Virus record (IMG/VR): IMGVR_UViG_3300045988_005188
Location: 1 to 5,591 of that record
Length of the DNA: 5,591 bases
From: a virus
Strand: one strand, 5' to 3'
Positions within the stretch are counted from its first letter, which is position 1, and each line of letters begins with the position of its first letter. Below the pieces are notes generated by a model. That model did no database searches and was not told the DNA's origin. It was given only the letters and a program-made list of their open reading frames with translations. Below, piece by piece: positions 1-5,591 of the stretch. A program made the translations under genes and the position numbers.

Positions 1-55
1 TCGGGATTCCGAAGTAATCCGCCAGCGTTCCCACGTTCCATCCTCCTGCTGGTGC
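1..55. repeat. Terminal redundancy from linearising a circular genome. Window 1-55 is identical to 5537-5591, so the unit genome is 5536 nt.
   Basis: Direct comparison: tcgggattccgaagtaatccgccagcgttcccacgttccatcctcctgctggtgc occurs at both ends (55/55 nt). Confidence 0.95.
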
Positions 56-397
56 GGTCGTTACCGGTGTCGTGTACTCTGTCTGTTCTGCCCAGAAAGT
101 GCTGTCGTTCTGGCCCATGAGGTTTTGAAAGTGCTTCCACAGCAGTCGCGCAGGCACAAAGAAAAAGTAAAAATCCATATATGCATTATCCATGACCGGA
201 TAAAGCGGAGTTGCCATACGCACCAGCGCATTCAGGTTGATCTTGAAGGTATCGGCTGGCAACACCTCGTCAAGGTAGATCGGTACCAGATCGCCTTCGT
301 TCATGGTCGTCAGCAGGTTGAAATCTCGCTGAAATTTTGCGCGTCTGATTTCCGCATGAGGTACCTGTGCATAGTGTTGTTCACTGTTTCTGTTCAT
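1..397 (-). CDS. VP1: Major capsid protein VP1 (F-like), N-terminal part. The ORF starts at ATG 397..395 and runs off the window's low end. It continues in frame through the circular junction into 5536..4284, giving about 549 aa in total.
   Basis: Minus-strand translation from 397 reads MNRNSEQHYAQVPHAEIRRAKFQRDFNLLTTMNEGDLVPIYLDEVLPADTFKINLNALVRMATPLYPVMDNAYMDFYFFFVPARLLWKHFQNLMGQND... The motifs 'QVP..I.R..F.R', 'LVPIY.DEVLPADTF', 'ARMATP..PVMDN' and 'FFFVP.RLLW..F' are the conserved N-terminal signature of Microviridae VP1/F. The frame is continuous with ORF 4284..5570 (codon phase checked against the 5536-nt offset). The first in-frame stop lies upstream at 529..527. The RBS is GAGGT 8 nt upstream of ATG 397 (aacaaaaaacGAGGTaaacgcaaATG). 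The ORF track misses this piece because it runs off the window edge. Confidence 0.85.
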   Translation of the reverse strand, partial: MNRNSEQHYAQVPHAEIRRAKFQRDFNLLTTMNEGDLVPIYLDEVLPADTFKINLNALVRMATPLYPVMDNAYMDFYFFFVPARLLWKHFQNLMGQNDSTFWAEQTEYTTPVTTAPAGGWNVGTLADYFGIP

Positions 398-881
398 TTG
401 CGTTTACCTCGTTTTTTGTTGATACTGCTTTATCAGGGTGTTGTGCTGCATCTTCATTTTTTGTCGAAATGCCCATTTTTTCGAGCCATTCGGCTTCTCC
501 TGCGGTTGCTGCCCAGTTCTGAAAGTTCATGCCGAACTTCTGCCTGATCTCCAGCGGCAGCATGTCGAACTTCTCGCGCTGCTCGTTCATCATGTTCAGG
601 TATTCGGTGTAGGTTTTCGGCAGTTTCGTGGTGTCGATGTAGTAGCCCGGCGTTGCCAGTGCGCTTTCGTCGCCTGCTGCGTATCGGCTGAGAATGGCCA
701 TCACGTCGCACTGGTCGCGGTAGCTCTGAATTTTTTCGTAGGTGTTGACTTCTCCGACTTTTTCAAGGTACGGGTGCCCGTTGTCGTCGTACCGCTCTTT
801 GTACTCCGGTTCCATGATGTTCCCGCAGCAGTTGCAGTGGACTTCCGGTTTTTCATCTTCGTATGGCTTAAAGATCTTCAT
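381..881 (-). CDS. VP3: Internal scaffolding protein VP3 (166 aa)
   Basis: ORF with ATG at 881. The segments 'RDQCDVMAILSRYAAGD', 'ATPGYYID' and 'EKFDMLPLEIRQKFGMNFQNW' resemble the conserved core of gokushovirus VP3. There is an AAGGAG 13 nt upstream. The 3' end overlaps the VP1 start by 17 nt in a different frame. Confidence 0.72.
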   Translation of the reverse strand: MKIFKPYEDEKPEVHCNCCGNIMEPEYKERYDDNGHPYLEKVGEVNTYEKIQSYRDQCDVMAILSRYAAGDESALATPGYYIDTTKLPKTYTEYLNMMNEQREKFDMLPLEIRQKFGMNFQNWAATAGEAEWLEKMGISTKNEDAAQHPDKAVSTKNEVNANEQKQ

Positions 882-1128
882 TCTTTTCGTTCATCTCCTT
901 TTTTTCCTGTTCCATGTTGTAAACCAGTTCCGGCGTCTGGCTCTGGATCTGGCCGGTTTCGGTGTCGTACATGCCAAGCTTGTAAATTCGCTTGTCGTCG
1001 CAGTCGCTTTTTTCTGTTTCTGCCGTGATCCACTTGAACGTGCGTTTTTTCACTTTCGGATTGATGCACATGAGGTTGCCAAAGGTGCCAGCGAGTTCGT
1101 CTTTGATCGTGAAAATTTCGAGAATCAT
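868..1128 (-). CDS. VP5: VP5-like small protein (86 aa), the putative ssDNA-synthesis / DNA-binding protein of gokushoviruses
   Basis: MILEIFTIKDELAGTFGNLMCIN...KRTF...DDKRIYKLGMYDTETGQI...PELV matches the gokushovirus VP5 pattern as I remember it ('FTI.D.KA..F..PF...N....R.F......D......LG.FD..TG.....P..L'). AAGGA lies 7 nt upstream of ATG 1128. The gene is located just upstream of VP3, as in gokushoviruses. Confidence 0.55.
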   Translation of the reverse strand: MILEIFTIKDELAGTFGNLMCINPKVKKRTFKWITAETEKSDCDDKRIYKLGMYDTETGQIQSQTPELVYNMEQEKKEMNEKNEDL

Positions 1129-1131
1129 GGT

Positions 1132-1335
1132 TTATTCCTTTCCCAGTTCGTAGATCTGTTTCGTGGTGATGTTATCGAGACCGTAGCGCAGCAGTGCCCT
1201 TGTTACTTTCGATCTGGGCAGCTCCAGTGTCTGGCTTACGTCCTCGATTTCTTCCAGCATGTTGTTTTCGATGTTGATCGCATATCTTATTTTCATCATG
1301 CTGGGTTCTTTTTGGTGATACGGTCTTTTGCTCAC
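1132..1335 (-). CDS. Ribbon-helix-helix (CopG/Arc/ParD-like) DNA-binding protein, 67 aa. It has a GTG start overlapping the upstream stop (GTGA).
   Basis: Protein ...MMKIRYAINIENNMLEEIEDVSQTLELPRSKVTRALLRYGLDN... An N-terminal beta-strand with alternating residues (IRYAINIEN) is followed by helix A, then 'LPRSKVTRALL', which matches the RHH helix-B N-cap motif (G/x-S-R-S-x-x-I-R-x-A-L). A strong SD (GAGGGGG) lies 9 nt before the GTG. An alternative ATG start 12 codons later has no SD. Confidence 0.55.
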   Translation of the reverse strand: MSKRPYHQKEPSMMKIRYAINIENNMLEEIEDVSQTLELPRSKVTRALLRYGLDNITTKQIYELGKE

Positions 1336-1451
1336 AGTCTGATTCCCCCTCTGCTCGGTTTCGGGTTCACGTTGATCTTTTTGGTTTTCTTTGCGGTGTT
1401 GGTGAAAATTTTCTTGTCGATCTTCGGTTTTACGGTCTTGCGGTATGCCAT
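1332..1451 (-). CDS. Small basic J-like / VP8-like DNA-binding (packaging) protein, 39 aa
   Basis: MAYRKTVKPKIDKKIFTNTAKKTKKINVNPKPSRGGIRL is highly K/R-rich. A perfect SD (AAGGAGGTG) lies 7 nt upstream of ATG 1451. The 87-aa version in the ORF track (1332..1595) would read through the T15 tract (FFFFF) and has no RBS, so the short form is preferred. Confidence 0.65.
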   Translation of the reverse strand: MAYRKTVKPKIDKKIFTNTAKKTKKINVNPKPSRGGIRL

Positions 1452-1481
1452 GATACCACCTCCTTTTTCTCTCATTTTACC

Positions 1482-1524
1482 AAAAAAAAAAAAAAACGCA
1501 AGGCTGATTTTCGTCAACCTTACG
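1482..1524 (-). terminator. Rho-independent terminator on the coding strand: an 11-bp stem (2 G.U), a 6-nt loop, then U15
   Basis: Minus-strand RNA reads CGUAAGGUUGA-cgaaaa-UCAGCCUUGCG followed directly by 15 U (the plus-strand A15 at 1482-1496). It sits 16 nt after the stop of the 53-aa ORF. Confidence 0.7.
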
Positions 1525-1539
1525 TTTTTAATGTTTGCA

Positions 1540-1701
1540 TTATTTGTTTTCGTATTCTTTGAGCTTTTCACAGATTGCTTCTGCCCATTCTTCATCCATG
1601 TTGTACTCTTTTTTTATTTCGTCTTTGTCTTTGCTTCTCCATCCGCCGTCGTAAAGAGCTGCTGCACAATCTTCTACATGTTCTTCATAGTAACTTTTCA
1701 T
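1540..1701 (-). CDS. Small acidic hypothetical protein, 53 aa (below the ORF-track cutoff)
   Basis: Hand translation of the minus strand gives MKSYYEEHVEDCAAALYDGGWRSKDKDEIKKEYNMDEEWAEAICEKLKEYENK, with ATG at 1701..1699 and TAA at 1542..1540. An in-frame stop lies immediately upstream. An SD (AAAGGATGG) lies about 10 nt upstream. The ORF is framed by a consensus promoter and a strong terminator. Roughly 16 of the 53 residues are acidic. Confidence 0.5.
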   Translation of the reverse strand: MKSYYEEHVEDCAAALYDGGWRSKDKDEIKKEYNMDEEWAEAICEKLKEYENK

Positions 1702-1730
1702 GGTTTAAGCACCATCCTTTCTACATCTTT

Positions 1731-1759
1731 ATTATACACCTCTTTTATACACTTGTCAA
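1731..1759 (-). promoter_or_regulatory. Consensus sigma70 promoter P2 (TTGACA-17 nt-TATAAT) reading toward the 53-aa ORF
   Basis: Minus strand: TTGACAagtgtataaaagaggtgTATAAT. The -35 box is at 1759..1754 and the -10 box at 1736..1731, with an exact 17-nt spacer. It shares an identical 18-nt core (aaaagaggtgtataataa) with P1. Confidence 0.6.
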
Positions 1760-1776
1760 GCACTTTTTTTCCTAGA

Positions 1777-1817
1777 GGTCGTCCGGTGCGCGCTGGGCCG
1801 CGCATGAAAAGGACGAC
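1777..1817. other. GC-rich compound hairpin: outer 7-bp stem GTCGTCC/GGACGAC and inner 6-bp stem TGCGCG/CGCGCA. On the plus strand it is flanked by T7 upstream and T6 downstream.
   Basis: Inverted repeats read directly from the sequence. The hairpin lies 50 nt downstream of the VP4 stop on the coding strand, but the U-tract geometry (hairpin + guaacUUUUUU) is correct only for plus-strand (antisense) transcripts. On the coding-strand RNA it is followed by cucuaggAAAAAAA. Confidence 0.5.
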
Positions 1818-1866
1818 GTAACTTTTTTGTGTCACGCCGTCCTGTTCCCTTTATTCAGCCGTTCTT

Positions 1867-2982
1867 TTAGATTTCTTCCCGGATAAGTTTTTTAAATTTA
1901 TCTTGATTTTTTCGATCTTTTACATCATAATATTCTTGCATGGTTAAGCCGGTTTGCTTGAGCTGAGCAAATAGCGCGTCGTTTGCGATTCTTCGGCGTT
2001 CTCTTTTGATTGCTTTCAGTTCTTCAGATTCGGCTTTTACTATTGTGTCTTCTATCGTCTCACTTTCTGCTTCTGATAGCGGTTTGCTGTTTGAATGTTC
2101 CAGATCAAAGAGCTTATCAAAATATCTTGGTGGTTTTGCTCTCCTTCCATTTTTCAGTTGAATTTCATCTTTTGCATAGATTTCATCTTTGTGTTCTTCA
2201 TAGTACTGCATTCCGATCGCAGGATTTTTGCTCATCATGCAGCGTTCTGGTAAAATTCCGAGTTCTTCATAATATTTTTTTGAATCTTTGCCGTAAATCT
2301 TTTTTGTCGTGTATCTTGCGGTGTATGCCATGTTTTTCCATTCTGCTGGTGCTACCACTACATGACCCATACCCCACAGCTTTGTGAGCCATTCAACATT
2401 GTAGTATCTGAAGCCGTTTTTCTGCTTGTAGATTTTCAGTTCTTCCGGTTTTATCGGCAGATCGTACACGATCGCATGATAGTGTGGTCTGTGTGTCTGG
2501 CTTCCATACTCGCCTGCTTGGTAGTACATCAGTTTTCCGGTATTTCTTTCATGGTATTCTAACCAGCGTCTTAGCCGTTTCCAAAATTTCTGCATGTCCT
2601 CATAGTTGAGTGTTAAGTTTTCTATGATGATCTCGCCTGTTTTTTTGTTAACGCCTAAACCTTGATTGTAAGACCATGGTACGTGTTCATTGTCGTATGT
2701 GAGTGTTAAAAACCATGCATTGTCGTGGTATGGAAGTTCCATTTCCATCCTGTTTGCCCAGCTGCTTGCATTTTGCATTTTACAGCCGGCACAGTGTCCA
2801 CATGGCAGGATTTGTGCATTTTCGTCTTTCAGCTTTCGCAGCAGCTTTTTTTCTAGGCTTTCTTCCAAGAATGGTCCTTCAATGTTGAGTTGGCTGTTGT
2901 GCTTCTTTCCTGCCAGCAGATACTTTTTCAGTGTCGTTATTTCGCCGTCTGCGAATCTTACCAAAGGTCTTGTGCACCCCAT
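1867..2982 (-). CDS. VP4: Replication initiation protein VP4 (HUH rolling-circle Rep), 371 aa
   Basis: HUH motif I is FLTLTYD. Motif II is HYHAIVY (HxH). Motif III, MAYTARYTTKK, is the catalytic Tyr motif (YxxxY..K). The N-terminus MGCTRPL (M.C..P) and the Cys cluster PCGHCAGC are typical of gokushovirus VP4. Confidence 0.9.
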   Translation of the reverse strand: MGCTRPLVRFADGEITTLKKYLLAGKKHNSQLNIEGPFLEESLEKKLLRKLKDENAQILPCGHCAGCKMQNASSWANRMEMELPYHDNAWFLTLTYDNEHVPWSYNQGLGVNKKTGEIIIENLTLNYEDMQKFWKRLRRWLEYHERNTGKLMYYQAGEYGSQTHRPHYHAIVYDLPIKPEELKIYKQKNGFRYYNVEWLTKLWGMGHVVVAPAEWKNMAYTARYTTKKIYGKDSKKYYEELGILPERCMMSKNPAIGMQYYEEHKDEIYAKDEIQLKNGRRAKPPRYFDKLFDLEHSNSKPLSEAESETIEDTIVKAESEELKAIKRERRRIANDALFAQLKQTGLTMQEYYDVKDRKNQDKFKKLIREEI

Positions 2983-3016
2983 ATGGATGTTTCACCCCGT
3001 TTACCTCAGTGGGCCC

Positions 3017-3060
3017 CAATAACCCTTCTTGATGTTATTGGGGCCCACTGACACAAAATT
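3017..3060. repeat. Perfect 17-bp inverted repeat (CAGTGGGCCCCAATAAC / GTTATTGGGGCCCACTG) around a 10-nt loop, lying between the RHH-1 stop and the VP4 start
   Basis: Exact reverse-complement arms at 3017-3033 and 3044-3060, with loop ccttcttgat. The arms contain GGGCCC. The loop and arm carry CTTGAT...TTATTG (plus strand) / AATAACATCAAG (coding strand). Confidence 0.8.
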
Positions 3061-3080
3061 TCTTGTTTCCTTCGTTTTCC

Positions 3081-3269
3081 TCATGGATTATTGTTGTCTT
3101 TTCCCATCGTTTCTACATATACCTGTAGTGCGTCCCTGATTATTTCGCTTGCTTGTGCTTTTCTTGGATTCTCTGTTCCTGTCCAGATGTTTTCTGTTGC
3201 CCAGTTTAAATTGTCTAGATCTTTCTGTGTAAGATTTATGTTGATTCTCTTTGCTACTTGGCTTTTCAT
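3081..3269 (-). CDS. Putative ribbon-helix-helix (CopG/Arc-like) regulator, 62 aa, encoded immediately upstream of Rep
   Basis: MKSQVAKRININLTQKDLDNLNWATENIW...ASEIIRDALQVYVE. It has a basic N-terminus followed by an alternating beta-strand (KRININLTQ), then helix A and helix B (SEIIRDAL). The SD AAGGGG lies 8 nt upstream of ATG 3269. The fit to RHH is weaker than for the 1132..1335 protein because of a longer inter-helix loop. Confidence 0.45.
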   Translation of the reverse strand: MKSQVAKRININLTQKDLDNLNWATENIWTGTENPRKAQASEIIRDALQVYVETMGKDNNNP

Positions 3270-3313
3270 GATTATACCCCTTTCTAGGTAAGGTGTGTGA
3301 TTAGTACACCCAT

Positions 3314-3342
3314 ATTATACACCTCTTTTCTGTGTCTGTCAA
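3314..3342 (-). promoter_or_regulatory. Consensus sigma70 promoter P1 (TTGACA-17 nt-TATAAT) driving the RHH-1 / VP4 operon
   Basis: Minus strand: TTGACAgacacagaaaagaggtgTATAAT. The -35 box is at 3342..3337, directly abutting the VP2 stop codon at 3343-3345. The -10 box is at 3319..3314, and the predicted TSS is about 40 nt before the RHH-1 ATG. Confidence 0.6.
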
Positions 3343-4272
3343 CTATCTATTCCTTGCTGTGTGCCCCGGGTTCCATTCAATGTCCCCGTGGCCTTCTCCA
3401 CTGATGCCCTTTTCGTTTCCTCGTGTCGTGCTGCTGCTCTGCTGGCTGCTCTGCTGGTTTAGGTTGCTGATCTGTTGTGCGCTGCTCGACATGATTTGAC
3501 TTGTTGCTTGTTGCATTTGCTCTGCGCTGTACCATTCGTTCGACTGCTTTGCCGTGTTGATCGCGCTCATCGCGTTTTGCAGGAACTGTGCCGTGTTGTT
3601 CCCATAGTCGTACATGCTTTGCATGGTCGCCGTGTGTGCGCTTGGGATGGCTGCGCTCTGAGTGTGTGAAAAGCTTTGCATTCCGCTGCTTGCTGTGCCG
3701 CCTGACGGTGTGCTTGCTCCGTATCCGTTGTATGCTGCTAAGATCGGATTCAAGCCTGCTGCTTTCAGGTCTTTCACGCCGCGCTGGTATGCGGTGCTGC
3801 TCATTCTTTCAGCCCACGCTCGTTGTGCTGCTGCTTCTGCGCTGTTGTACTTCTGTGCGCTGGTCTGGCTTGCGAGGTTCAGACCGTTCGCAACAATGTT
3901 TGATAGCATGTTTAGGCCGTTTGCGTAGCTCCACATACCTGTTTGCAGGTTGTTTGCCGTTGCTGCCTGTCCTGCGTTGAACCCTGCCGCCTGTCCTGCG
4001 TTGTTTCCGGTCGGGCTTCCCATTGCTGTTTGCAGGATTGAACCCAGTGCACTGGTGTTGCCTGTTGTTACGCTTCCACCGCTTGCGCTGGTTGTTCCGC
4101 TGGTTGTTCCGCTGGTGCTTCCGCTGCTCATGCTTGTGTTCATGCCCTGCTGTCCCATGGCGCTGCTGGTGCTTCCGCTTGTGTTGCTGAACAGATTTTT
4201 CATCTGTCCTGCGATCGACAGGCCGCCCGATACGATCGGCAGCCATGTCGTTAATCCTGATAAGAGGCCCAT
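3343..4272 (-). CDS. VP2: DNA pilot / minor capsid protein VP2, 309 aa
   Basis: It contains '[33 protein letters not shown]', which matches the conserved gokushovirus VP2 motif (ERMS.TAYQR.V.D.KAAGLNP.LA). The N-terminal 140 aa are G/S/T/Q-rich low complexity. The SD AAGGGGGTG lies 6 nt upstream of ATG 4272, which is 12 nt after the VP1 stop. Confidence 0.8.
3965..4003. repeat. 15-nt direct repeat gcctgtcctgcgttg x2 (period 24 nt) inside VP2. It encodes the duplicated peptide NAGQAA.
   Basis: Exact copies at 3965-3979 and 3989-4003. Confidence 0.8.
4087..4122. repeat. 12-nt tandem repeat x3 (gctggttgttcc, gctggttgttcc, gctggtgcttcc) inside VP2. It encodes (TSGT)n.
   Basis: Read directly. 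It produces the [17 protein letters not shown] low-complexity tract. Confidence 0.8.
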
Positions 4273-4283
4273 TTTGCACCCCC

Positions 4284-5591
4284 TTAGATCGTGTCAATTC
4301 CAGGTACGCTGTAGATCGGCATCGGTCGCGTCCATGCCTGTTCGTAGTAGAAATTACAGATGAATTGATGGCTGTTGGAACTCTGCACAGCGAGAGTTCT
4401 ATCAATGTTTTCTGTTCCTTCTTTGATCCAGCTGCTGGACAGGGTAGGAAGTGCGTCGTACTTGTCTGCATAGTGCCATGCATCCAGTGTCTGCGCGTAG
4501 GTGCTGCGCATTTCGCTTGTTACCATGTTGGTGCGGTATCTGTAGTCGGCCCATGCTTCTTGATACCCGAAAACTTCTTCGTCCTGCGGCTTGCCCTGTG
4601 CATAGATCTCCTGATTGAGAACTGCTTGTTCACCGAGGTTTGCAAGCATCGGGTCATAATAGCTGAAGCGCGTGTTTCTTGTCCAAAGCCTGCTCAAACC
4701 CTGTTGATAGCTGTGATCTACACGGATAGCTGCCAGACCCAGAACATAACCATGTTCCGTTGCCGAGTACGTGCACATGTTCTGGCTCAAGGTCGTCATA
4801 CTGTAAGCACCAGTGTTGCCCTGCGGCGATGTGCTGTCTGTGCTGCTGGTCTGAATGACCTGATTCACGTTGATCGGCATTCTGTGGCCGCCGATGTACT
4901 CAGATCGGTCAAGACGTGCATCCGGGCTGGTCACACCCCACGCGCCTTTTAGGATTTCTTTGTACCGGGTGCCGGTTCTGGCATCGCGTTCGAAGATATG
5001 CTGCACTGCGATGGCCTGTCGGAGATCGTTGATTGTTGCCGCTGTGACAGTGCTCAGGTCTGCTTGCATTGAGGTGTAGTTTATTTCGCTCGCGTTTGTT
5101 TGCCCACCGAACATTACAAGCGCTTTTCCGCTTTTGTTGTTCTTTTTTGATGCCGCGAGTTTCATGTTTGAGTTTATCGGAATGTTTTCGAGGTTTCCGC
5201 CTCCGTCTTGGAAAATCTCTCCATTTGCCATGGTTTCTGCACTATTTGGCCATACAATTTGTGCGTTTCCTGTCATTGGCAGCTGTACTGGTTCTGTAGA
5301 TTTCTGCGGAGACGGCAGGCAGCTTGTGAAGTAGTCTTTGTATTTGCAGACCTTCAAAGGCAAACCGCCTGCTTCTGCGTCTGACAGGTTTGTGCCGGTG
5401 TTTACGCCGGTTGTGGTCGTGTCGTTCATGCTCTGTGTGACAGGCTGCTGCAAATTTTCGTCTCGGAACCATTCGTTCCAAACTTTTGCATACGCCCGGA
5501 ACGGCAGGCTGTTCACCTTCAGGCCGCTCACGCCTGTCGGGATTCCGAAGTAATCCGCCAGCGTTCCCACGTTCCATCCTCCTGCTGGTGC
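4284..5591 (-). CDS. VP1: Major capsid protein VP1, C-terminal part (continuous with 1..397 across the circular junction). 5537..5591 duplicates 1..55.
   Basis: ...[40 protein letters not shown]... carries the 'LPFRAY....NEWFRD.NL' signature of Microviridae VP1. The GTG at 5570 listed as the start in the ORF track is internal, because the frame stays open upstream through the junction. The stop is TAA at 4284-4286. Confidence 0.9.

Follow-up and report, generated by a model that had tools for sequence, protein, structure and literature searches.

We analysed a stretch of 5,591 nucleotides (nt) of viral DNA (IMG/VR record IMGVR_UViG_3300045988_005188, positions 1 to 5,591; hereafter the window) that carries on its minus strand a short open reading frame (ORF) for an acidic protein of 53 amino acids (aa). 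The gene occupies a slot whose cargo is exchanged among related microviruses, and in sister genomes the same slot holds a homologue of the anti-CRISPR (CRISPR, short palindromic repeats that are clustered and regularly interspaced) protein AcrIC5. We are highly confident that the 53-aa gene is an accessory, swap-in gene. That its product acts against host defence is a tentative reading by association, to which we give slightly less than an even chance, and an anti-CRISPR function specifically is unlikely.

On the minus strand the gene lies downstream of the gene for the replication initiator VP4 and upstream of a gene for a J-like protein. We fetched 51 further microvirus loci via VP4 and read in each the stretch from the VP4 stop codon to the J-like gene. 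Almost all relatives share a backbone, consisting of a covarying structured element after VP4 and of a hairpin, a run of 10-17 T and the motif TGnTA(A/G)AAT before the J-like module. The slot is located between the structured element and the hairpin with its T-run. A promoter that we call P2 is kept in the relatives irrespective of the cargo behind it, and many slots share a common promoter and leader (TTGACAAGTGTAT....AGGTGTATAATAAAGGTGTAGAAAGGA) followed by a variable small ORF. The original prediction, which was made from the letters of the window, had proposed a survey of whether the same locus in relatives carries variable small ORFs, and it does. A relative of the 53-aa protein was present in 15 of the 51 loci; in L030 and L036 it is a longer variant, and in L075 (as also in MG945797) it has diverged and is basic. 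Two loci (L034, L035) carried a 60-aa protein, which is the AcrIC5 cargo, and at least nine carried unrelated small ORFs behind the same promoter. Peptidase M15 was found in three loci, at least eight were empty, and three (L050, L051, L060) held deletion remnants only. The unrelated ORFs, of 53-83 aa, fall into at least five further types (L031/L070, L038/L046, L053/L059, L054/L055, L058, L067), none with a Pfam match; one of these is a Cys-rich protein of 53-55 aa (..YRYEHCDG.CE.CPCH..). In L008 (133-736), a 56-aa relative of our protein directly precedes a peptidase M15 gene with no terminator between them. The peptidase M15, probably a lysis enzyme, lies in or beside the slot in L008 and, downstream of VP4, in L037 and L061.

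L028, whose VP4 is 98% identical to that of the window and whose J-like gene is the same, lacks exactly the promoter and the ORF. The junction, read by eye from the sequence, is ...AGTGCT/AACATT..., and TGC(T) microhomology flanks the missing 223 nt. In L068, VP4 is just 52% identical to that of the window, yet the 53-aa gene is 80% identical. These two loci and the pattern of presence and absence therefore indicate that the 53-aa gene is non-essential and exchanged among lineages.

The cargo of L035 (MKYVIDQNGNNIDYEAAVNLMDNEIREELHREMAPCTEQEFYDAYCKRHEETYHEEFVVM) matched the Pfam family AcrIC5 (PF22147) over profile positions 2-53 of 53, with an E value of 2.7e-26 and a score of 91.9 bits against a cut-off of 27. 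A search for AcrIC5 returned five microvirus clusters on contigs of 4.2-5.8 kb, at 73-100% identity. In L174 and L175, the AcrIC5 gene is located in the same slot, with the same promoter before it and the same terminator after it, and a full-length AcrIC5 homologue is the slot cargo in at least four genomes. AcrIC5 has been validated experimentally as an inhibitor of type I-C CRISPR-Cas, including the system of Eggerthella lenta; it blocks CRISPRi, and thus DNA binding, and Firmicutes and Actinobacteria have orthologues of it (PMC7913775). A preprint (10.1101/2025.06.06.658234) describes AcrIC5 as highly acidic and predicts that it occupies the site of Cas8c that recognises the protospacer-adjacent motif. 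Because an AcrIC5 homologue occupies the slot of sister phages, the 53-aa protein is a good candidate for an inhibitor of immunity. The 53-aa ORF itself gave no match to PF22147 in the Pfam profile search.

The ORF stood as originally read, with its 53 residues (Table 1). The protein contains 16 D+E and 9 K+R residues, which gives a net charge of -7 and an isoelectric point (pI) of 4.56. We found 19 homologues in a collection of 5.8 billion proteins, with identity down to 67% and with length held at 51-56 aa; the homologues with long contigs were all on contigs of 5.2-5.8 kb. Across eleven loci, the ratio of nonsynonymous to synonymous substitution rates (dN/dS) was 0.09-0.42 in pairwise comparisons, with dS up to above 1, and 23, 9 and 32 sites varied at codon positions 1, 2 and 3, respectively. 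A dN/dS of about 1 had been named beforehand as an outcome that would speak against the gene; the values obtained show that the coding potential is conserved. These comparisons indicate that the ORF is a genuine protein gene under purifying selection. An AlphaFold2 model, computed with the alignment of homologues, predicts a three-helix bundle (helices 4-18, 23-32 and 37-52) with a mean predicted local distance difference test score of 92.6.

Searches with the sequence and with the model, as the original prediction had recommended, uncovered a large family, and no informative match to a known family or a solved structure. Neither the ORF nor the family domain matched Pfam, PHROGs or NCBIfam. 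A sequence search of the PDB gave chance matches only, and Foldseek with the model against the PDB gave nothing at E<5. A structure search of BFVD returned only two uncharacterised phage proteins, which are probably family members, and the fold searches otherwise returned generic three-helix matches only. In four database proteins (P0014, P0017, P0018, P0019) the N-terminus of the 53-aa protein continues into part of another gene of its genome, namely the 62-aa ORF, the C-terminus of VP2 or a shifted frame. Contigs of 0.6-1.9 kb carry P0014, P0018 and P0019, and one of 5,537 nt carries the frame-shifted P0017. These four are probably assembly chimeras or frameshifts, and possibly recombinants.

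A profile search of 1.84 billion representatives (at 50% identity) gave 366 hits at E<=1e-3, and the 90%-identity collection contained 1,423 clusters; every one of them is labelled hypothetical or unnamed, and a Pfam domain is present in none. The family, which we refer to by its 'LYDGGWR' motif, has the hallmark AAALYDGGWR[S/A]xD[R/K]xxLIxEYxLTEEEADxICExLxEYE in a domain of about 45 aa. One residue, W21, never varies, and A13, L16, Y17, G19, G20, R22, D25, Y33 and L47 hardly do. Acidity is uniform across the family's domain, with a mean net charge of -7.9 and a median pI of 4.2. The domain can stand alone (45-70 aa), be repeated in tandem or be joined to other domains. A C-terminal AcrIC5 domain was present in five members, with E values of 4e-18 to 2e-5, and two members (P0067, P0102) carry an N-terminal ribbon-helix-helix (RHH) domain. 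In L020, one promoter is followed by a 63-aa gene of the AcrIC5 family, then after 27 nt by a gene of the LYDGGWR family, and then by a terminator. The carriers of the family include siphovirus-like contigs of about 40 kb, a P2-like prophage of Acidaminococcus and an integrative element. There, judged from precomputed gene calls, the gene is in accessory regions, between the lysis and regulatory modules or at the prophage ends. It typically stands among other small acidic ORFs, which are followed by an RHH gene in L168 and by a helix-turn-helix (HTH) gene in L166, a layout that resembles loci of anti-CRISPR (acr) and anti-CRISPR-associated (aca) genes. The non-viral matches were to Clostridia, Lachnospiraceae and other Bacillota metagenome-assembled genomes. 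Among cultured phages (INPHARED) and plasmids (PLSDB), the family was found only in uncultured Microviridae records. The record L017 (MG945868.1, 'Microviridae sp.', 5,305 nt) encodes a 119-aa tandem two-domain member of the family; its large ORF resembles a rolling-circle Rep (HPHVH motif) and not a capsid protein, so the record may be a mislabelled small plasmid-like replicon.

The original prediction had described a self-contained, moron-like unit made of promoter, ORF and terminator. The promoter part of this description holds: P2 matches the sigma-70 consensus at 12 of 12 positions, so that the 53-aa gene appears to have a promoter of its own. The exact sequence TTGACA-17-TATAAT occurs twice in the window, at P2 and at a second site, P1, and not once in 200 dinucleotide-preserving shuffles. 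The strong hairpin and the tract of 15 T after the gene also proved to be as described, and the hairpin comprises 15-16 pairs when its A-U extension is counted. A stable GC-containing hairpin directly before a U-tract is what defines a Rho-independent terminator, and the hairpin with its T15 fits this definition. The stems differ by lineage among the relatives, and the hairpin structure is retained; all of them fold when folded individually. However, relatives without the ORF carry the same hairpin and T-run, so the terminator belongs to the backbone and is not private to the cassette; together with the T15 it doubles as part of the next promoter. This candidate promoter, P3, has an extended -10 element, TGnTA(A/G)AAT, which follows the T-run in nearly all relatives whether the cassette is present or not. 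The J-like/ORF5/VP3/VP1/VP2 module is probably transcribed from P3, so that terminator and promoter would stand back to back. The description as moron-like is thus borne out by presence and absence and by the gene's own promoter, whereas the strong terminator that follows the ORF is not carried along with it and the base composition is not atypical (GC content of 0.375-0.38 over the ORF versus 0.35-0.47 in the flanks).

Three direct repeats lie across P2, and like repeats are present at P1. Four of the six matches to GTGTAnnA in the window fall in the two consensus promoters, over their -10 regions. These repeats are a candidate operator and may serve two RHH-like proteins encoded by the window genome. 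One of these is a 62-aa ORF behind P1, read as RHH-like from KRININLTQKDL...SEIIRDALQVY, without a Pfam match and with a marginal match to a PHROG repressor (E 0.09). The other, of 67 aa, has a weak match to RHH_3 and to the repressor family phrog_4738. P1, which overlaps the end of VP2, is 76% alike to P2 over 38 nt, and both contain AAAAGAGGTGTATAAT. Aca proteins repress acr promoters. The repeats over both promoters and the two RHH-like proteins suggest later repression of the kind that Aca exerts. The Shine-Dalgarno sequence noted originally is present in the leader, in an imperfect form. A mini-ORF of five codons also begins in the leader. In relatives with other cargo, the ATG of this mini-ORF is in frame with the cargo (MVLKMTL...).

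From these data we propose how the locus might work. The 223-nt insertion/deletion unit is the promoter and cargo of a swap-in slot that this clade of gut gokushoviruses keeps between VP4 and the backbone terminator and promoter that precede the structural module. Once the single-stranded DNA (ssDNA) has been converted to the double-stranded replicative form, the host sigma-70 RNA polymerase would fire the consensus promoter, and the short transcript would stop at the backbone hairpin and U15; the consensus sequences suggest both steps. The soluble, acidic three-helix product would then build up fast, and would bind and block a host immune protein. Its likeliest target would be a component that recognises nucleic acids, such as the surveillance complex of type I CRISPR-Cas, and its job would be the same as that of the AcrIC5 homologue when the latter is in the slot of sister genomes. 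As double-stranded DNA, the replicative form would be the target of type I CRISPR-Cas and of restriction systems. The GTGTAnnA repeats and the two RHH-like proteins may later shut the promoter in an Aca-like manner.

The proposal of an anti-defence factor, already made in the original prediction, is strengthened by the AcrIC5 cargo of the slot, by the AcrIC5 fusions and adjacency and by the acidity of the family, all of which are associations. Several observations weigh against it. The 53-aa protein matched no known Acr or anti-defence family in the profile, PDB and fold searches. AcrIC5 fusions account for just 5 of the 146 representatives, and many further fusion partners of the domain are unknown domains, so the association may partly reflect a promiscuous module. 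Of 83 non-microvirus loci, only 1 had an AcrIC5-like gene within 3 kb of the family gene, and we therefore do not claim frequent co-location. Basic or cysteine-rich proteins are the other cargos that the slot carries, so that it need not serve one function. Finally, the conserved residues look to be mostly core and turn residues, with no conserved binding surface evident. The broader proposition is that the 53-aa protein is the founding member of a widespread, undescribed anti-CRISPR or anti-defence family of the mobile elements of gut Clostridia, and that gokushoviruses keep a dedicated consensus-promoted slot in which cargo is traded with tailed phages. We consider this doubtful, although a real possibility.

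Other functions were weighed against an anti-defence role. The protein could be an accessory regulator or adaptor, which binds a DNA-binding regulator such as an RHH repressor as an anti-repressor, or escorts or modulates an effector such as AcrIC5. The RHH fusions of P0067 and P0102 fit this idea, as do the RHH gene and an AntA/ANT antirepressor in the cluster of L168, the two RHH-like proteins of the window with operator-like repeats over P1 and P2, and the tandem copies and many different partners of the domain, which are also seen in adaptor modules. However, most members stand alone with neither RHH nor AcrIC5 nearby, and the microvirus slot has the family gene instead of AcrIC5, not alongside it. 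Fusions of RHH to an effector are also typical of Aca-Acr fusions, and the RHH evidence therefore does not discriminate. We judge such a role rather unlikely. A host-takeover or superinfection-exclusion factor, which would hit a housekeeping protein of the host or the entry or replication of a competitor phage, is also improbable in our view. Small, strongly promoted, non-essential and horizontally exchanged genes would suit it; in prophages, members of the family are found close to the ends, where morons lie, and superinfection-exclusion determinants are known from microviruses (Kirchberger 2021, as cited in PMC9239249 and PMC10002423). Nevertheless, the known microvirus determinant is, in the account of PMC10002423, a hypervariable part of the pilot protein with no separate gene, the 53-aa protein is without a membrane segment or signal peptide, and the link to AcrIC5 would be left unexplained.

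Two further explanations fared worse. The gene adjoins the J-like gene and is conserved in several microvirus lineages, which would be expected of a core function such as an acidic chaperone (net charge -7) for the basic J-like DNA-packaging protein (+12), or a replication or assembly factor. But it is missing from L028 and is replaced by unrelated proteins elsewhere, and the carriers of most of the family, tailed phages and integrative elements, are without a J-like gene. The presence and absence data thus largely refute a core function, which we regard as highly improbable. That the locus is a non-coding leader or regulatory RNA with a chance open frame might be argued from the shortness of the ORF, its absence from the first-stage ORF track and its imperfect ribosome-binding site. 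This reading is refuted by a dN/dS well below 1, and the excess of third-position changes, the more than 1,400 clusters with a conserved motif and the confident fold prediction also speak against it; we give it practically no chance.

Among known systems, morons and the acr loci of phages come closest. Compared with AcrIC5 and other acr loci, the 53-aa gene is alike in encoding a small acidic protein behind a very strong predicted promoter and in being non-essential and horizontally exchanged. AcrIC5 itself stands in the same slot of sister microviruses and is fused or adjacent to the family elsewhere, and in tailed phages the neighbours of the family gene are further small acidic genes, with an RHH or HTH gene behind the cluster. 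In contrast, the 53-aa protein is not homologous to AcrIC5 or to a known Acr, and its transcription unit contains no aca gene, the two RHH-like genes being elsewhere in the genome. Morons of tailed phages share with our gene the presence or absence in near-identical genomes, the consensus promoter of its own, the terminator after it and the location between two conserved genes. They differ in that the carrier here is a 5.5-kb ssDNA microvirus, the terminator is part of the backbone, the composition is not atypical, and only the ORF is exchanged within a fixed promoter/terminator slot. The original prediction had drawn an analogy to DNA-mimic anti-restriction proteins, with Ocr as the example. 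Like Ocr and ArdA, and like small acidic mimics such as phi29 p56, the 53-aa protein is small and highly acidic and would be expressed early. No similarity in sequence or fold to a known mimic was found, and the 53-aa protein is predicted to be a monomeric three-helix bundle; beyond its charge, Ocr-like mimicry of DNA has no support. The defensive hypervariable region of gokushoviruses (Kirchberger et al. 2021, as cited in PMC9239249 and PMC10002423) is also a hypervariable, conflict-related part of the genome. According to PMC10002423 that region is an internal part of the pilot protein VP2 and acts to exclude other microviruses, whereas here we found a separate intergenic slot with its own promoter. 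We describe the locus as an acr- or moron-type cassette in the form of a fixed promoter/terminator slot in an ssDNA phage, with an undescribed protein family as cargo.

The window is a complete circular genome. Its terminal redundancy of 55 nt (1-55 is the same as 5537-5591) means that the true genome size is 5,536 nt. All of its genes are on the minus strand. Judged from its sequence, it is the genome of a gokushovirus-like gut microvirus; the closest database records are uncultured Microviridae of pig and human gut, at 74-81% identity over parts of the genome. Genes were assigned by Pfam and PHROGs searches (Table 1). The 53-aa ORF showed no homology to the canonical gokushovirus families (VP1-VP5, ORF8/J-like) in these searches, and its neighbours were all assigned, in agreement with the earlier statement that no canonical microvirus gene of this size or charge sits here.

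Table 1. Positions and properties of the features of the locus and of the window genome (numbering of the window).
Feature	Position	Strand	Remarks
Insertion/deletion unit (promoter, leader and ORF), 223 nt	1759..1537	-	missing from L028
Promoter P2, TTGACA-17-TATAAT, perfect sigma-70 consensus	1759..1731	-	12/12 match
Three direct repeats GTGTATAA / GTGTATAA / ATGTAGAA, 13-nt spacing	1719..1752	-	over -10 and start-site region
Shine-Dalgarno-like AAGGAtGGTG	1719..1710	-	GGTG ends 8 nt before ATG; imperfect
5-codon mini-ORF ATGGTGCTTAAACCATGA (MVLKP*)	ATG 1715..1713, TGA 1700..1698	-	stop overlaps start of 53-aa ORF (ATGA)
53-aa acidic ORF MKSYYEEHVEDCAAALYDGGWRSKDKDEIKKEYNMDEEWAEAICEKLKEYENK, slot cargo, 'LYDGGWR' family	1701..1540	-	homologues; dN/dS 0.1-0.35 across relatives; fold
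Intrinsic-terminator hairpin	1528..1493	-	-20.8 kcal/mol, z -4.4 versus shuffles
T15 tract, exactly 15 T	1496..1482	-	terminator tail and spacer of next promoter
TGGTAAAAT, candidate extended -10 promoter P3 for J-like/ORF5/VP3/VP1/VP2 module	1482..1474	-	conservation
Promoter P1, second perfect TTGACA-17-TATAAT	3342..3314	-	overlaps VP2 end, precedes 62-aa ORF
Repeats at P1	3322..3302	-	like those at P2
62-aa ORF, RHH-like	3081-3269	-	marginal PHROG repressor match
67-aa RHH-like protein	1132-1335	-	weak RHH_3 / phrog_4738 match
Two hairpins between VP4 stop and P2	1765-1866	-	kept in relatives
18-bp inverted repeat, perfect	3006-3051		10-nt loop
Major capsid VP1		-	PF02305
Pilot protein VP2		-	Pfam/PHROGs
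Replication initiator VP4		-	upstream of cassette; PF23343, phrog_942
J-like protein, 39 aa, basic, net charge +12		-	downstream of cassette; phrog_10695
ORF5		-	PF20577
Scaffold VP3		-	PF09675

Some further elements were seen around the slot. Between the VP4 stop codon and P2 there are two hairpins, GGACGGCGTGAC..GTTACGTCGTCC and GCGCGG..CAGCGCGC, both of which are kept in relatives, where compensatory changes are seen; around the second hairpin, GTCGTCC and GGACGAC (GTCGTCC/GGACGAC) offer an alternative pairing. These hairpins could be a replication origin, a packaging signal or the terminator of VP4. The perfect inverted repeat (TCAGTGGGCCCCAATAAC / GTTATTGGGGCCCACTGA) lies between the 62-aa ORF and VP4. 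A conserved peptide of 34-35 aa (MITLKDVKGIFNQLRKILAMLDKIYHAMGLDKEE) is encoded after the T-run and just before the J-like gene in many relatives (L009-L013, L016, L036, L040, L054, L068 and others); the window is without it, and L028 has a hydrophobic ORF of 39 aa at that place.

Microviruses are among the most abundant gut phages. A survey of the group described limited accessory repertoires and rare horizontal transfer: genes were exchanged little or not at all between microviral families or with the bacterial hosts (PMC9239249). Our literature search, whose coverage left subscription journals outside, found no report of anti-CRISPR genes in microviruses. The turnover of slot cargo among near-identical genomes, the AcrIC5 homologues and a family shared with tailed phages and integrative elements point to active arms-race gene traffic in ssDNA phages of 5.5 kb. 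Together, the LYDGGWR family and at least five other cargo types provide a short list of anti-defence candidates, with lengths of 50-85 aa. If the 53-aa protein is an inhibitor, more than 1,400 protein clusters that are now labelled hypothetical would gain an annotation. A dedicated anti-defence slot, if true, would be without an earlier described counterpart in ssDNA phages, and would run against the view of microviruses as genetically isolated phages with almost no accessory genes.

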